This document shows, piece after piece, positions 32,924 through 39,087 of a stretch of 64,000 nt of DNA. Where the stretch lies: the NCBI RefSeq assembly GCF_054482525.1, contig NZ_CM137006.1; one strand, given 5' to 3'. Under the pieces are notes generated by a model that saw only the letters and a list, made by a program, of their open reading frames with translations, was not told the origin of the DNA and made no database searches. A program made the position numbers and the translations under genes. Every line of letters starts with the position of its first letter. Position 1 is the first letter of the stretch.

Positions 32924-33010
32924 GCGAAGGTGGCGGAATTGGTAGACGCGCTAGCTTCAGGTGTTAGTGTCCTTACGGACGTGGGGGTTCAAGTCCCCCC
33001 CCTCGCACCA
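32924..33010 (+). tRNA. leuQ: tRNA-Leu (anticodon CAG), 87 nt incl. CCA
   Basis: gcgaaggtggcggaattggtagacgcgctagcttcaggtgttagtgtccttacggacgtgggggttcaagtcccccccctcgcacca; D-arm, CAG anticodon loop (cttCAGgt), long variable arm, T-arm GGTTCAAGTCC. Confidence 0.93.
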
Positions 33011-33038
33011 AAAACCACGTTGATATTGCTCGCACTGG

Positions 33039-33125
33039 GCGAAGGTGGCGGAATTGGTAGACGCGCTAGCTTCAGGTGTTAGTGTTCTTACGGACGTGGG
33101 GGTTCAAGTCCCCCCCCTCGCACCA
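33039..33125 (+). tRNA. leuP: tRNA-Leu (CAG), 87 nt; differs from flanking copies by one base in the variable arm (gtgtTctt vs gtgtCctt)
   Basis: second tandem copy after a 28-nt spacer. Confidence 0.93.
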
Positions 33126-33159
33126 AACGAGGCGATATCAAAAAAAGTAAGATGACTGT

Positions 33160-33246
33160 GCGAAGGTGGCGGAATTGGTAGACGCGCTAGCTTCAGGTGT
33201 TAGTGTCCTTACGGACGTGGGGGTTCAAGTCCCCCCCCTCGCACCA
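33160..33246 (+). tRNA. leuV: tRNA-Leu (CAG), 87 nt
   Basis: third tandem copy after a 34-nt spacer; identical to first copy. Confidence 0.93.
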
Positions 33247-33284
33247 ATTATCTTTACTTCCTTTCTTGTTGCTTCCCTGTTTTA

Positions 33285-33521
33285 TCATCCCTGCTTCAAA
33301 TTCATTATCATCAGCATGATGCCAGCAATAAGCGCCAGGCACGATGGCAGCAAAACGTAATGCCGCAACTGTTTGTGATACAGCATCACCGGCGTCAATA
33401 CTAATCCCATCAGAATGATAATCCGCCATTGATCCGGCGATAAATCCGCATACATCAGCCCTGCAATCAGCAATCCCGGCAGCAACACTCCCCAGCCACT
33501 GCCCAGCGTACGTTGCAACAT
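33285..33521 (-). CDS. yjjZ: small inner-membrane protein YjjZ
   Basis: ORF 33285..33632; MLQRTLGSGWGVLLPGLLIAGLMYADLSPDQWRIIILMGLVLTPVMLYHKQ from codon 38. Confidence 0.65.
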   Translation of the reverse strand: MLQRTLGSGWGVLLPGLLIAGLMYADLSPDQWRIIILMGLVLTPVMLYHKQLRHYVLLPSCLALIAGIMLMIMNLKQG

Positions 33522-33537
33522 GGTTTCATCTCTTTCA

Positions 33538-33580
33538 TTGATAATGATAACTAATATCATATGATAATTTTTATCATTTG
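33538..33580. promoter_or_regulatory. overlapping Fur boxes in the yjjZ/fhuF divergent promoter; approximate
   Basis: gataatgataactaatatcatatgataatttttatcatt resembles Fur consensus GATAATGATAATCATTATC repeated. Confidence 0.75.
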
Positions 33581-33661
33581 CAAGCCAGAGAAATCCCTTG
33601 CTATCGGGTAAACCTATCGCTAGGATTAGCAATCATTATCATTTAGATTACTATCCCGATT

Positions 33662-34450
33662 ATGGCCTATCGTTCCGCACCGCTCTATGAAGATGTTATC
33701 TGGCGAACGCATCTCCAGCCGCAGGATGCTGGGCTTGCACAAGCCATACGGGCGACGATCGCCGAACATCGTGAACATTTGCTCGAGTTTATCCGCCTGG
33801 ATGAACCCGCTCCGCTTAACGCCATGACGCTGGCGCAATGGTCATCAACGAATGCGCTAAGTTCTCTACTCGCGGTCTATTCCGATCATATCTATCGCAA
33901 CCAACCAACGATGATCCGCGAGAACAAACCGCTGATCTCACTATGGGCGCAATGGTATATCGGCCTGATGGTGCCACCGTTAATGTTGGCGCTGCTGACG
34001 CAGGAAAAAGCATTAGATGTGTCGCCGGAACATTTCCACGTTAAGTTTCACGAAACCGGACGCGCCGCCTGTTTCTGGGTCGATGTGTGTGAAGATAAAA
34101 ACGCAACACTACATTCGCCGCAGCAGCGAATGGAAACGTTAATCAGTCAGGCGCTGGTTCCGGTAGTGCAGGCATTAGAAGCAACGGGAGAGATCAACGG
34201 CAAACTTATCTGGAGCAATACCGGTTATTTGATCAACTGGTATCTGACTGAGATGAAACAGCTGCTTGGCGAGGCGACGGTTGAATCGCTGCGCCATGCC
34301 CTCTTTTTTGAGAAAATGCTCACGAACGGTGAAGATAATCCACTCTGGCGTACCGTGGTACTGCGCGACGGCCTGCTGGTGCGCCGCACTTGCTGCCAGC
34401 GTTATCGCTTACCGGATGTGCAGCAATGTGGCGATTGTACGCTGAAATGA
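33662..34450 (+). CDS. fhuF: ferric-siderophore reductase FhuF (2Fe-2S)
   Basis: 262 aa ORF MAYRSAPLYEDVIWRTHLQPQDAGLAQ...; C-terminal Cys cluster CCQRYRLPDVQQCGDC. Confidence 0.92.
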   Translation: MAYRSAPLYEDVIWRTHLQPQDAGLAQAIRATIAEHREHLLEFIRLDEPAPLNAMTLAQWSSTNALSSLLAVYSDHIYRNQPTMIRENKPLISLWAQWYIGLMVPPLMLALLTQEKALDVSPEHFHVKFHETGRAACFWVDVCEDKNATLHSPQQRMETLISQALVPVVQALEATGEINGKLIWSNTGYLINWYLTEMKQLLGEATVESLRHALFFEKMLTNGEDNPLWRTVVLRDGLLVRRTCCQRYRLPDVQQCGDCTLK

Positions 34451-34487
34451 AAGCACTGCCGGGGAAGTAAACCCGGCATCATGCGGA

Positions 34488-35165
34488 TTAATAGGGATGC
34501 AACACATTACTTGCTTCGCAATGCCGCATACATAACAGAATATCTGCGGCCTCCAACAACCCTGCATCAGAACTGACGCCCAGTTTCGACATCACATTAA
34601 ATTTATGTGCACGGATCGTTTTGATATTGCGTTTAAGCTGCTCGGCAATTTGTGTCATTGAGTAGCCACGCGACATAAAGCGCAATATTTCTCTCTCCGT
34701 CGGGCTTAGCGTTCGGCTTTGATTAATGTACCACTGATTGTTCAGTCGGTCGGTCGCCTGACGTACACCATTTAATGACAAAAAGAGTTCCTGATGAAAA
34801 ATCTCCAGCGTTGACGCTTTACTTAATACACCGTCCAACGGTGATGGCGACAATGAACCAATCAGCCGAGCTTCAATATCATCATCCGCAATAACTAAAC
34901 GCCGGGTACGCGGAAACTTAATCGCCAGTTCAGTCAGGCAAGATAATCCCTCTCTGCGCTCACTTCTCATGGCAGAAAAAGAAAAAATGACCGCCGCAAA
35001 CGAGATCCGCGACATGGCATCCTGAAATGACTCCTGACTGGTATAGGTATGGAGCTTATAAGGGTTACCCGCAAACTTTCTGAATAAACTCTCAATACCG
35101 ATACTACTCATGACGCATTTTTCTATGAGTGCGACATTTCTCTTCTTAATTCGGCTGTGTTCCAT
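34488..35165 (-). CDS. bglJ: LuxR-family transcriptional activator BglJ
   Basis: 225 aa ORF with C-terminal LuxR HTH ([45 protein letters not shown]). Confidence 0.88.
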
Positions 35166-35848
35166 TCTGCGGCATCTCCATAAACAGAAGGCAAGTTAAG
35201 TTCTCTTGCACCCTGCGCGCTATTTATCCATGCATACATTTCAGCGTTGCTGTGAATTGCCAGTCGACGCATCGCACTGTTTTTTTGGGCGCTGATAGTT
35301 TTATTACTTTTCTTAAGCAATGAAGCTATCTGGTTGATGCCCCATCCTTTACCTAATAGCCGCAGCACTTTGCGCTCTGAAAGAGTGAGAATGACGGAGC
35401 GATAGCTAAAATCATGAGTTTCAGTCATTGCCGGAGAGGTCAGCATGGCGCTGATACGCTCTGCGTGCGTATTGCCGGAACGTACGGTCTTGACCAGATT
35501 CTCAATGGGTTCAACATCAGACAATAACGTCGCCGTAGGGCACATGAGCAATTCTACTGCCTGGGAATACCAGGAGCGTGACACCATGAAAACCCAGTGA
35601 ATTTCCCGATATTGCGAGATTAAAGAATAATAATGTTCACAAACAGAACGTGGATCTTCACTTTCACCGGCTAAATCAGCAATGACTAATCCGGAACGAC
35701 GTAATTGTAATAAGGTAAGGTCCTCCGCAGAGGCGCTGGATATTATTTCATATTCAGGGAAGTGAGTCCTCATGACCTCTTTTAACCCTGCTTGCATAAC
35801 AGGTATTTTACTGATAACAATTCCATTTTTGCAGCATCCTGGCAACAT
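35123..35848 (-). CDS. yjjQ: LuxR-family regulator YjjQ
   Basis: 241 aa ORF with C-terminal LuxR HTH ([41 protein letters not shown]); overlaps bglJ start. Confidence 0.88.
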
Positions 35849-36466
35849 ATTTCCTCCACATCCACTGTCTAAAAATTATGATGGTTTATTCAGGATATTC
35901 ATTCCTTAAATGTTTCCAGCAAATTAATAGATTAAGCGAATAAATTATCCTTAGCATTCACTTTCATATCAGCATACTCCTGCTGCACAACAACTCCACT
36001 GCATGTGTCAGAAGGTTAGCATCAAATGATAACCTAGTGAAATAGCCTGGAGACATTTAAAATATCTACATTAAGTTGTTAGAAATACTTAATGAAAAAC
36101 AGAATTCTCATTCATTTAATTTATAATTAACTGATATCCCTTCCAGTAGAATGCAAAATCACACAATCAATATTTATTCAATAAAATCTGATAGTTTTAA
36201 CTTGTAAAAAATAAAAAACGCGCCCAGTTATCTTTTATCCTGATTCGTAAAGGCTAAACAATAAATTCATTATAGTGATAATATTCATGTGATAATTTGT
36301 TTGCGGCGAGAGATAATTCGCTTTTTATCACCGAGCTTCTCCCGATAACCAGGATTAATCAGCGCAATTTTGATCTTAACCTACCGCAAAACAACCGTGC
36401 TTCATGATACAAATGGATTCTCATTATCTGAACAATACGCAGCACGTCTATGACAAAGGGCGAGTT
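35849..36466. promoter_or_regulatory. AT-rich divergent yjjQ-bglJ / yjjP control region (typical of H-NS-silenced promoters)
   Basis: ~600 bp with long A/T tracts (e.g. ttaatttataattaactgatatc, aaaataaaaaacg) between divergent start codons. Confidence 0.55.
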
Positions 36467-37237
36467 ATGCAAACTGAGCAACAGCGAGCCGTAACACGGC
36501 TTTGTATCCAGTGTGGATTATTTCTTTTGCAACATGGTGCCGAAAGCGCGTTGGTTGATGAGCTTTCCTCACGACTGGGTCGGGCGTTGGGAATGGACAG
36601 CGTCGAAAGTTCTATCTCTTCGAACGCCATAGTGCTGACAACCATTAAAGATGGGCAATGCCTGACATCGACACGAAAAAATCACGATCGCGGCATTAAT
36701 ATGCATGTGGTGACTGAAGTCCAGCACATTGTGATTCTGGCGGAGCATCATCTGCTGGATTACAAAGGTGTAGAGAAACGATTTAGCCAAATTCAGCCAT
36801 TACGTTACCCGAGATGGCTGGTAGCCTTAATGGTCGGCCTTTCTTGCGCCTGTTTCTGTAAACTCAATAAAGGTGGCTGGGATGGTGCCGTCATCACCTT
36901 CTTTGCCAGTACGGTCGCGATGTATATCCGCCAGCTGCTGGCACAACGTCATCTTCATCCACAGATCAACTTTTGCCTCACCGCTTTCGCCGCCACCACC
37001 ATTTCCGGTTTGCTTTTGCAACTTCCCACTTTCAGCAATACACCCACTATCGCGATGGCCGCCAGCGTTCTGCTGCTGGTGCCGGGTTTTCCGTTGATTA
37101 ATGCCGTCGCCGATATGTTTAAAGGCCACATCAATACCGGACTGGCACGCTGGGCGATCGCCAGTCTGCTGACACTGGCTACCTGCGTCGGCGTGGTGAT
37201 GGCACTGACGATTTGGGGGCTACGCGGATGGGTGTGA
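36467..37237 (+). CDS. yjjP: ThrE-family inner membrane protein YjjP
   Basis: ORF 36404..37237; K-12-length product if started at [21 protein letters not shown] (codon 22). Confidence 0.8.
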
Positions 37238-37701
37238 TCGAATTTCTGTTAGCGTTGGCGCAGGATATGATCCTCGCCGCCATTCCTGCGGTCGGCTTTG
37301 CGATGGTGTTCAACGTTCCCGTGCGGGCGTTACGCTGGTGTGCGCTGCTTGGCTCGATAGGTCATGGTTCCCGAATGATCTTAATGACCAGCGGGCTGAA
37401 TATTGAGTGGTCAACTTTTATGGCTTCTATGCTGGTCGGCACCATTGGTATTCAATGGTCGCGCTGGTATCTGGCGCATCCGAAAGTGTTTACCGTGGCG
37501 GCTGTTATTCCTATGTTCCCTGGCATATCGGCTTATACCGCAATGATTTCGGCGGTAAAAATCAGCCAGCTAGGTTACAGCGAACCGTTGATGATTACCC
37601 TGTTAACCAACTTTCTTACAGCTTCATCAATTGTTGGTGCGTTATCCATCGGTCTTTCCATTCCTGGATTATGGTTGTACCGCAAGCGCCCTCGCGTATA
37701 A
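37228..37701 (+). CDS. yjjB: inner membrane protein YjjB
   Basis: ORF 37213..37701; [31 protein letters not shown]...; overlaps yjjP 3' end. Confidence 0.82.
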
Positions 37702-37807
37702 AATTGCCTCGCTTAAGCACACGGATGAGAGACAGCCTCCTCTCCTCCGTGTGTTACTATAAAAGTTATCTCCCTTCTCGTTCATCGTTCCATATTTGAG
37801 AAACAGT

Positions 37808-38347
37808 ATGTCTTCCAGAGTTTTGACCCCGGACGTCGTTGGTATTGACGCCCTGGTACACGATCACCAAACCGTTCTGGCAAAAGCTGAAGGCGGTGTG
37901 GTTGCCGTATTTGCTAACAATGCCCCGGCGTTTTATGCCGTCACGCCTGCACGCCTGGCTGAACTGCTGGCGCTGGAAGAAAAGCTGGCGCGTCCGGGAA
38001 GCGATGTCGCTCTGGACGATCAACTCTATCAGGAACCGCAAGCCGCTCCCGTTGCTGTACCCATGGGGAAATTCGCCATGTATCCGGACTGGCAACCCGA
38101 TGCCGACTTTATCCGCCTGGCGGCGCTATGGGGCGTGGCACTAAGAGAGCCGGTGACCACCGAAGAACTGGCCTCATTCATTGCCTACTGGCAGGCGGAA
38201 GGTAAAGTCTTTCACCATGTGCAGTGGCAACAAAAACTGGCGCGCAGCCTGCAAATCGGCCGTGCCAGCAACGGCGGACTGCCGAAACGAGATGTGAATA
38301 CGGTCAGTGAACCTGACAGCCAAATTCCACCAGGATTCAGAGGGTAA
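37808..38347 (+). CDS. dnaT: primosomal protein DnaT
   Basis: ORF 37796..38347; [47 protein letters not shown]. Confidence 0.9.
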
Positions 38348-38349
38348 CG

Positions 38350-39087
38350 ATGAAAAACGTTGGCGACCTGATGCAACGCCTGCAAAAAATGATGCCTGCC
38401 CATATCAAACCTGCTTTCAAAACGGGTGAAGAACTACTGGCCTGGCAGAAAGAACAAGGGGCGATCCGCTCCGCCGCTCTCGAACGTGAAAATCGGGCGA
38501 TGAAAATGCAGCGCACCTTTAACCGCTCCGGTATTCGTCCACTGCATCAGAACTGCTCCTTTGAGAACTATCGCGTTGAGTGTGAAGGGCAGATGAATGC
38601 GTTAAGCAAAGCGCGCCAGTATGTCGAAGAGTTTGACGGCAACATCGCCAGCTTCATCTTTTCTGGTAAGCCAGGAACCGGCAAAAACCATCTGGCGGCA
38701 GCAATCTGCAACGAGCTGCTGCTACGCGGTAAATCCGTATTGATCATCACCGTGGCCGATATTATGTCGGCGATGAAAGATACCTTCAGGAATAGCGGTA
38801 CCAGCGAAGAACAACTGCTTAACGATCTGAGCAACGTTGATCTGCTGGTGATCGATGAGATCGGCGTACAGACCGAATCGAAATACGAAAAAGTGATCAT
38901 CAATCAGATCGTCGATCGCCGCTCTTCTTCCAAACGCCCAACCGGGATGCTGACCAACAGTAATATGGAAGAGATGACCAAGTTGCTGGGCGAACGCGTG
39001 ATGGACCGTATGCGCCTGGGTAACAGTTTGTGGGTGATCTTCAACTGGGATAGCTACCGTAGCCGGGTAACGGGTAAAGAGTATTAA
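38350..39087 (+). CDS. dnaC: helicase loader DnaC (AAA+ ATPase)
   Basis: 245 aa ORF; Walker A GKPGTGKNHLAAA, Walker B LLVIDEIG. Confidence 0.92.
   Translation: MKNVGDLMQRLQKMMPAHIKPAFKTGEELLAWQKEQGAIRSAALERENRAMKMQRTFNRSGIRPLHQNCSFENYRVECEGQMNALSKARQYVEEFDGNIASFIFSGKPGTGKNHLAAAICNELLLRGKSVLIITVADIMSAMKDTFRNSGTSEEQLLNDLSNVDLLVIDEIGVQTESKYEKVIINQIVDRRSSSKRPTGMLTNSNMEEMTKLLGERVMDRMRLGNSLWVIFNWDSYRSRVTGKEY

Follow-up and report, generated by a model that had tools for sequence, protein, structure and literature searches.

The AT-rich divergent region between yjjQ-bglJ and yjjPB: a variable core between conserved promoter-proximal flanks

Introduction

Among the described systems that most resemble the yjjP/yjjQ-bglJ intergenic region is the regulatory region of the bgl operon, the silencing of which is also relieved by BglJ-RcsB. 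The bgl region is AT-rich, bound by H-NS, de-repressed by LeuO and activated in cis by insertion sequences (PMC2646131, PMC9678765), and IS1 and IS2 are likewise known to hit the spacer considered here. On the other hand, bgl has a patchy distribution and is in decay across the E. coli phylogroups (PMC2646131), whereas the yjjP/yjjQ locus is near-universal in E. coli, syntenic across the family and takes part in the control of two divergent operons.

The yjjP/yjjQ region is itself already known, since the locus, its control by H-NS and LeuO and several further binding proteins have been published for K-12. Published papers describe yjjQ-bglJ as an operon that is repressed by H-NS and activated by LeuO in K-12, and place the divergent yjjP gene within the same original K-12 study (PMC5025477, PMC3950696, PMC2646131, PMC4264507). 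Genomic SELEX has located both an H-NS site and an RpoD-holoenzyme site within the spacer (PMC3946193). In the mouse gut, E. coli recurrently acquires adaptive insertions of IS elements in it, which raise yjjP expression about 2-fold under aerobic conditions (PMC5094792, PMC4674774, PMC7064181), and the spacer has also found use as a host-informative marker (PMC11267920). What the analysis reported here adds to this picture is descriptive, and consists of the contrast between a neutral core and fixed flanks, the family-wide synteny of the locus and a conserved, putative promoter/FNR module ahead of yjjP.

Results

The region under study lies in a window of 64 kb, the whole stretch of DNA that was analyzed, where it forms a non-coding spacer of 618 bp (35849-36466) between yjjQ-bglJ on the minus strand and yjjP-yjjB on the plus strand, equal in length to K-12 positions 4602859-4603476. 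The yjjQ gene (35123-35848, minus strand; GC 0.449) encodes a LuxR/FixJ-type HTH regulator of 241 aa and is the first gene of the yjjQ-bglJ operon. The second gene, bglJ (34488-35165, minus strand; 225 aa, GC 0.450), shares its first 43 bp with the 3' end of yjjQ and has a product that matches the NCBIfam BglJ equivalog with 383 bits (cut-off 176). Divergent from yjjQ, yjjP (36467-37237, plus strand; GC 0.519) encodes an exporter subunit of the ThrE family, for which the K-12 annotation is putative succinate exporter, and is followed by yjjB (37228-37701, plus strand; NCBIfam PRK09917, 325 bits), the second gene of the yjjPB operon. Beyond yjjB lie dnaT and dnaC, and beyond bglJ lies fhuF. E. 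coli PCN033 is 100% identical to a 901-bp query across the spacer, and its RefSeq annotation names yjjQ, bglJ, yjjP and yjjB at this place; in the RefSeq annotation of K-12 MG1655 the same genes stand in the same order around a yjjP-yjjQ spacer that is also exactly 618 bp long.

An earlier note on this DNA, made from the sequence alone, had described an AT-rich divergent region of some 600 bp upstream of the LuxR-type pair yjjQ-bglJ. The identity of the pair is borne out by the BglJ equivalog match, by the LuxR/FixJ-type HTH of YjjQ and by the PCN033 annotation, and the AT-rich region can now be given its exact limits and composition (35849-36466, 618 bp, GC 0.328 as against 0.526 for the window). 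The spacer is more than an upstream region of yjjQ-bglJ, its other end being a conserved yjjPB promoter region with a published FNR peak; a published MarA site lies in the spacer as well.

The extent of the spacer depends on the start chosen for yjjP, since the longest open reading frame opens at an alternative ATG at 36404 (277 aa) that would reduce the spacer to 555 bp. Stratmann, Madhusudan and Schnetz (2008; J Bacteriol 190:926) reportedly found that H-NS binds centrally, away from the promoters, in an AT-rich region of "555 bp", and reportedly also placed the LeuO sites centrally, with one of them overlapping the yjjP promoter. This length corresponds to 35849-36403, the spacer up to the older 277-aa yjjP start at 36404. 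We prefer the 618-bp boundary and the 256-aa yjjP start, because the ATG at 36467 is conserved (it is kept in 49 of 54 species) and because a promoter-like module is located 3' of 36404.

The spacer is the lowest-GC stretch in the window. Segments of 618 bp with an equally low GC content amount to 0.3% of all such segments, every one of them overlapping the spacer, and the next-lowest stretch elsewhere reaches 0.408. Low GC is unevenly spread within the spacer, with values of 0.254 in a central core of 260 bp (36036-36295, putatively the main H-NS-bound segment), 0.348 in the 187 bp on the yjjQ side and 0.421 in the 171 bp on the yjjP side, and the spacer is as a whole slightly more AT-rich than its K-12 counterpart (0.328 vs 0.345). 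The high-affinity H-NS motif TCGATAAATT was found, with up to two mismatches, four times in the 618-bp spacer and 70 times in the other 63.4 kb, an approximately 6-fold enrichment per kb that we set aside as a weak indicator of H-NS binding, in that it largely reflects AT content (74 matches in the whole window, against 57 ± 8 in shuffled sequences).

The earlier note had pointed to the yjjP-yjjQ intergenic sequence of K-12 as a term of comparison, and the two regions prove to be orthologous, equal in length and identical outside the central 260 bp. They align with no gaps and with 597 of 618 positions identical (96.6%), and all 21 substitutions fall within the core (36036-36295), where they amount to 8.1% of positions, both flanks (358 bp in all) being 100% identical. 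This core value is close to the 7.1% of four-fold degenerate sites (53/749) that differ from K-12 in seven neighbouring genes, and hence the core appears to drift at a roughly neutral rate. Divergence at four-fold sites is 11.9% in yjjP, 2.8% in yjjQ and 1.1% in bglJ, and the YjjQ protein has no amino acid difference from K-12. Conservation of the yjjP-side flank thus far exceeds that of synonymous positions in the adjacent yjjP. Less weight attaches to the identity of the flank on the yjjQ side, because four-fold divergence is so low in the adjoining yjjQ and bglJ, and it may stem in part from a recently shared (recombined) segment rather than from constraint.

Searches of complete E. coli genomes detected the spacer query in 5,424 of 5,426. 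The yjjQ-side flank is at least 99% identical in 4,380 of 5,418 genomes, with the remainder at 95-99%, and the yjjP-side flank reaches the same level in 2,803 of 5,423, a further 2,607 standing at 95-99% and 13 lower. For the core, identity of at least 99% is seen in only 266 of 5,419 genomes, from which it follows that the window carries a minority core allele, and 4,700 genomes lie at 90-95%. The population figures agree with the K-12 comparison and, judged from sequence, the flanks appear to be constrained and the core to diverge at a near-neutral rate.

Conserved blocks were taken from an alignment of 20 species, in which the core does not align between genera. Next to yjjQ, a GGAGG Shine-Dalgarno element (35853-35857, minus strand) is placed 4 nt before the ATG, and its GGAG is invariant in this alignment. 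A consensus scan predicts a sigma-70 promoter for yjjQ-bglJ, CTGATA-17-GATAAT (35944-35972, minus strand), which is the same site as that given for the operon in the RpoD SELEX table (PMC3946193) and would put the yjjQ transcription start near 35937, and a GGATAAT..ATTC block holding the predicted -10 is conserved in Escherichia, Citrobacter and Salmonella. MarA ChIP-seq in ETEC H10407 has yielded a strong (+++) peak between yjjP and yjjQ, with the marbox gcatcaaatgataac (PMC5684230). This 15-mer is found unchanged at 36019-36033 (plus strand), inside a block conserved across genera, where the marbox reads GCATCAAATGATAAC, with 0 mismatches to the MarA binding site defined by ChIP-seq and as the sole match in the window.

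Two elements of the core itself can be singled out. The near-palindrome gttagaaatacttaa (36078-36092; reverse complement TTAAGTATTTCTAAC on the yjjQ strand, with no orientation assigned) is conserved in the 20-species alignment, and in other genera takes the form TTAG-N5-CTAA, exact in 12 of 55 spacers at 205-261 bp upstream of the yjjQ ATG. One may speculate that its factor recognizes a LeuO T-N11-A box or an RcsB-type half-site; visual comparisons with the RcsAB box, the BglJ-RcsB core wwTTCykA and the PmrA/BasR box gave partial matches only (7/8 in the case of wwTTCykA). A second promoter-like site for yjjP, ATGAAA-17-TTTAAT (36092-36120, plus strand; PMC3946193 Table 1), is predicted and weak, and it falls within the non-conserved core, some 350 bp ahead of yjjP.

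Conserved elements are found on the yjjP side as well. The FNR-like site TTGATCTTAACCTA (36370-36383, plus strand) contains one perfect TTGAT half-site and matches TTGAT-N4-ATCAA at 8/10 positions, its second half being poor in E. coli (ACCTA vs ATCAA). The string TTGATCT (36370-36376) recurs in 53 of the 55 spacers compared, where it precedes the yjjP ATG by 68-97 bp. Further downstream, an extended -10-like element for yjjP, TGaTACAAA (36405-36413, plus strand), predicts a transcription start at about 36418-36420, and its TG.TA.AA pattern (36405-36412) is present in 51 of 55 spacers, the first base of TTGATCT lying 36 bp before its own in every case. The consensus over 53 species is cacaaa..TTGATCT.a.CCa(21 nt)gtG.tAaAA. 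We read TGaTACAAA as a putative extended -10 with no usable -35, and TTGATCT as a putative FNR-type box, the centre of which falls at -41.5 to -43.5 relative to the start predicted from the extended -10. The alternative of TTGATC as a -35 element was discarded, given that it is too far from the conserved -10 and has no -10 17 bp downstream.

This FNR-type reading was made before the FNR ChIP data for the region were found. Published ChIP-seq places an FNR peak at the spacer, which two peak callers out of three detected and which has a moderate PWM score (ln p = -7.95), and the peak is absent from the wild-type ChIP-chip calls (PMC3688515 Tables S5, S9). The same source estimates the target to be yjjP and lists H-NS and BasR as other known regulators (PMC3688515). 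The peak summit, at 4,600,950 in the older K-12 numbering, converts to a position some 69 bp before the yjjP ATG (approximately 36398 in the window), at a distance of about 21 bp from the box centre. For this conversion, the older and newer K-12 coordinates are taken to differ by +1,977 bp. As a check, that value was compared with the MG1655 annotation and with the entries for leuP and leuV in the PMC3688515 tables.

Further published data bear on the behaviour of this end of the spacer in K-12. A sigma-70 ChIP-seq peak at the yjjP end stands at 907 under anaerobic and 163 under aerobic conditions (PMC3688515 Table S2), and yjjP and yjjB are about 2-fold higher anaerobically (PMC3688515 Table S12). 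No fnr-dependent change in yjjP expression was recorded in glucose minimal medium (PMC3688515 Table S9). In a delta-hns delta-stpA background the FNR ChIP-chip signal rises from 0.32 to 0.66 (PMC3688515 Table S7), and yjjQ responds to O2 only when H-NS and StpA are missing (PMC3688515).

To place the locus in its family, a YjjQ search was conducted with one genome per species, and it recovered 80 Enterobacteriaceae loci at 55-98% amino acid identity. The genera represented include Escherichia, Citrobacter, Klebsiella, Enterobacter, Kluyvera, Raoultella, Leclercia and Phytobacter, among others, and a locus is present also in Salmonella diarizonae. In essentially all loci long enough to score, yjjP is located upstream of yjjQ and divergent from it, and yjjQ is followed by a bglJ-like gene and then by fhuF. 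A direct divergent spacer is seen in 54 species, with a length of 387-709 bp (median 442) and a GC content of 0.32-0.44 (median 0.365), the whole loci ranging from 0.48 to 0.58. The GC content of yjjQ is below that of yjjP in 77 of 77 species (median difference -0.089), and bglJ is likewise lower than yjjP in 76 of 77, the deficits of the two genes being 7.5-9 points.

In some 20 species, yjjP and yjjQ are instead separated by 1.8-2.65 kb. In K. pneumoniae, the extra DNA comprises genes for a 394-aa protein resembling a PobA-type flavin monooxygenase and for a 302-aa AraC-type regulator, both identified by eye.

Discussion

The low GC content of the region admits more than one explanation. The earlier note had spoken of xenogeneic silencing and, taken to mean recent foreign DNA, this would make the spacer and yjjQ-bglJ a recently acquired island that is silenced by H-NS for that very reason. 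A GC content of 0.328 in the spacer, 0.449 in yjjQ and 0.450 in bglJ, below both the window (0.526) and yjjP (0.519), is what such an origin would lead one to expect, and three tRNA-Leu genes are clustered about 2.6 kb away. Against it, YjjQ homologues adjoin yjjP, a bglJ-like gene and fhuF in the scorable loci among 80 species, and the presence of the spacer in all but two of the complete E. coli genomes leaves no trace of a patchy distribution. Moreover, a GC deficit of yjjQ relative to yjjP that is shared by all 77 species points to an old and maintained property, and not to a recent arrival. The PCN033 annotation shows neither an integrase nor a transposase between rsmC and yjjA, and no notable repeats were found in or around the spacer. 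We therefore hold a recently acquired island to be very unlikely; recent transfer is largely refuted, and an acquisition may have taken place before the family diverged. On the evidence of synteny and composition, the locus appears to be ancestral and its AT-richness old and maintained. A different account would see in the AT-richness two ordinary promoter regions plus mutational drift towards AT, with no role in silencing, and the near-neutral divergence of the core (8.1% vs 7.1%) and the scant sequence conservation between genera could be read in its favour. Yet low GC (0.32-0.44) is kept in all 54 direct spacers despite sequence turnover, which argues for a compositional constraint, H-NS binding and repression have been reported experimentally for K-12, and IS insertions in the spacer alter expression and are selected in vivo. 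Mere drift thus strikes us as exceedingly unlikely.

A spacer of this length might also harbour an unannotated gene for a small protein or a small RNA, which would then set its length. Thirteen open reading frames of 20 aa or more (20-65 aa) lie wholly or partly in the spacer, and seven small ones were examined across the Escherichia lineages, among which none of the seven is kept with a protein-like substitution pattern: starts are lost, stops gained or frames shifted in sister lineages, and the changes are mostly non-synonymous, in agreement with the earlier note, which had found no convincing small open reading frame in the region. The best that can be said for a hidden gene is that a 30-aa frame (35964-36056, minus strand) is open in five of six Escherichia lineages, and that the spacer contains one terminator-like stem (36305-36322) and a 14-nt inverted repeat (35906-35919 and 36047-36060). 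The stem stands at chance level (one found vs 0.7 in shuffles) and is not conserved in other Escherichia clades, and the inverted repeat and the idea of a structured yjjQ leader were dropped, the putative leader folding no better than shuffled sequences (z = -0.74). Apart from the tRNAs, a search at a permissive threshold returned no Rfam match in 33000-39000, and the current K-12 annotation is devoid of any feature in the spacer. A hidden gene is, in our view, extremely improbable.

With these alternatives weighed, we consider it highly probable that the spacer is a control region that the divergent operons yjjQ-bglJ and yjjPB have in common, organized as a three-part unit. The AT-rich core (~36036-36295), constrained in its composition and free in its sequence, would nucleate H-NS/StpA, a role that we infer from the K-12 literature. 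From there, a nucleoprotein filament would spread over both flanks and leave both operons poorly expressed, until LeuO, and probably other site-specific proteins too, restructured the complex and brought about de-repression. The filament would likewise restrict the access of site-specific factors such as FNR, an effect shown in K-12 (PMC3688515 Table S7). The yjjQ-proximal flank (35849-36035) would contribute the yjjQ ribosome-binding site, the predicted sigma-70 promoter and the MarA-bound marbox, and the yjjP-proximal flank (36296-36466) a putative, deeply conserved core promoter (extended -10 TGnTAnAA) with an FNR-type TTGAT site upstream, in roughly class II placement. The yjjP promoter would then be an old and rigid module that favours anaerobic conditions, its conservation having been computed here and its anaerobic sigma-70 preference being drawn from the literature. 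The insertion of an IS element, such as the IS1 that we found in the spacer of three natural E. coli isolates, provides a cis route to altered expression, one that is known from experimental evolution in mice.

The earlier proposal of silencing by H-NS, as reported for K-12, is well in keeping with what is known of the orthologous spacer, namely the published repression, the SELEX site and the increased FNR occupancy in delta-hns delta-stpA, all of which are K-12 data. More generally, the binding and regulation described for H-NS, LeuO, MarA, FNR and sigma-70 come from K-12 or ETEC, and we infer their transfer to the strain at hand, the core of which differs by 8% from the K-12 core that was tested.

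A more specific reading may be put forward tentatively, as a possibility about which we are rather doubtful. The yjjP module could be an ancestral, class II-like module of FNR type that couples the YjjPB (putative succinate) exporter to anaerobiosis and is masked in E. coli by an H-NS filament arising from the AT core, and the near-palindrome at 36078-36092 could represent a further operator, for LeuO, an RcsB-type protein or YjjQ. If true, a masked module would explain both the binding of FNR with no accompanying fnr phenotype and the repeated selection in the gut of IS insertions in the spacer. The conserved, putatively FNR-type module before yjjPB offers a testable reason for the selection of such insertions in the mouse gut. 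In a broader sense, the region would provide a clean example of how H-NS-silenced regions evolve, with composition kept across the family, a centre that drifts neutrally and promoter-proximal ends that stay fixed.

Of the described systems, the yjjP/yjjQ-bglJ region of K-12 is the closest, being the same locus with the same flanking genes, the same length of 618 bp, 96.6% identity and identical promoter-proximal flanks; the difference lies in the 21 substitutions of the central 260 bp, where the window has the minority core allele. The yjjP end resembles class II FNR promoters (TTGAT-N4-ATCAA near -41.5) in its perfect TTGAT, at a fixed distance from a conserved extended -10, in its lack of a good -35, and in what is reported at yjjP, where FNR occupancy has been seen in vivo and sigma-70 favours anaerobic conditions. 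It departs from them in that its second half-site is weak, its start is a predicted one and no fnr-dependent change was seen in glucose minimal medium (PMC3688515 Table S9). The divergent regions csgDEFG/csgBAC and flhDC/uspC present a similar architecture, with AT-rich spacers of several hundred bp, many regulators, RpoD SELEX sites overlapping those of H-NS and a record as targets of IS elements (PMC3946193, PMC5493358, PMC11267920), although fewer regulators have been documented for the yjjP/yjjQ spacer. Another difference is that one end of the yjjP/yjjQ spacer is given over to a transporter operon, yjjPB, with a putative FNR-type site, in place of a further operon, structural or regulatory, from the same pathway.

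Boundaries and composition of the yjjP-yjjQ spacer

The longest yjjP open reading frame, of 277 aa, begins at the ATG at 36404. Downstream of this codon sits a conserved promoter-like element, and 49 of 54 species keep the ATG at 36467; for both reasons, the 256-aa annotation of yjjP, which starts at 36467, is right, and older figures of a 555-bp spacer rest on the longer reading frame.

The distance between yjjP and yjjQ reaches 1.8-2.65 kb in Klebsiella, Kluyvera, Raoultella, Pseudocitrobacter and some Citrobacter, as represented by Klebsiella pneumoniae (locus L070, 2550-5000) and about 20 other loci (L008-L011, L025, L026, L029-L032, L034, L040, L043, L046, L060, L065, L066, L074-L076, L081 and L082). 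The additional DNA in K. pneumoniae encodes proteins of 394 and 302 aa, which by eye resemble a PobA-type flavin monooxygenase and an AraC-type regulator, respectively, and leaves about 265 bp upstream of yjjQ. Matches are partial in two further species: upstream of yjjQ in Escherichia albertii (L007), YjjP is detectable only for residues 204-256, and those in Citrobacter koseri (L013) are limited to YjjP 125-256 and BglJ 3-123. Either gene decay or rearrangement of the locus could account for these truncated matches.

The yjjQ-proximal half of the spacer contains a 14-nt inverted repeat (TTAAATGTTTCCAG at 35906-35919 and CTGGAGACATTTAA at 36047-36060), with 13 of 14 positions complementary and arms 127 nt apart; the RNA enclosing it folds no better than shuffled sequences (z = -0.74). 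Just past yjjZ and fhuF lie three tandem tRNA-Leu genes (32924-33246; leuQPV in K-12), and leuP and leuV are also among the peaks in the supplementary FNR ChIP tables of PMC3688515, where the spacer has a peak assigned to yjjP.

Variation among Escherichia coli genomes

An allele at least 99% identical to that of the window in the AT-rich core of the spacer (36036-36295) is found in 266 of 5,419 genomes, and 4,700 are only 90-95% identical to it; the core allele of the window is thus a minority type. The yjjP-yjjQ spacer has been employed elsewhere as a host-informative marker (PMC11267920).

With a 901-bp query spanning the spacer, about 25 of 5,424 E. coli genomes show no uninterrupted match. 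IS1 was found within the spacer of three natural isolates (L083, NZ_AP042500.1; L084, NZ_CM180503.1; L085, NZ_CP051615.1), at 35942-35951 and 36131-36140 in window numbering. The 8-bp target duplication of a bovine isolate (35944-35951) falls on the predicted yjjQ -10 element, and a human diarrhoeal isolate carries IS1B inside the core, at 36131-36140. In a pig ST131 isolate the insertion is accompanied by a deletion of 35110-35941, in which yjjQ is lost entirely and bglJ loses its 5' part. The junction at 35942-35951 is common to two independent events.

At four-fold sites, divergence of the window from K-12 is strongly mosaic along fhuF, bglJ, yjjQ and yjjP. It amounts to 16% in fhuF (33662-34450), with 13 amino acid changes, and to 11.9% in yjjP, whereas yjjQ and bglJ, both within 34488-35848, differ from K-12 by 2.8% and 1.1%, respectively. 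This pattern suggests that recombination breakpoints flank yjjQ-bglJ on both sides.
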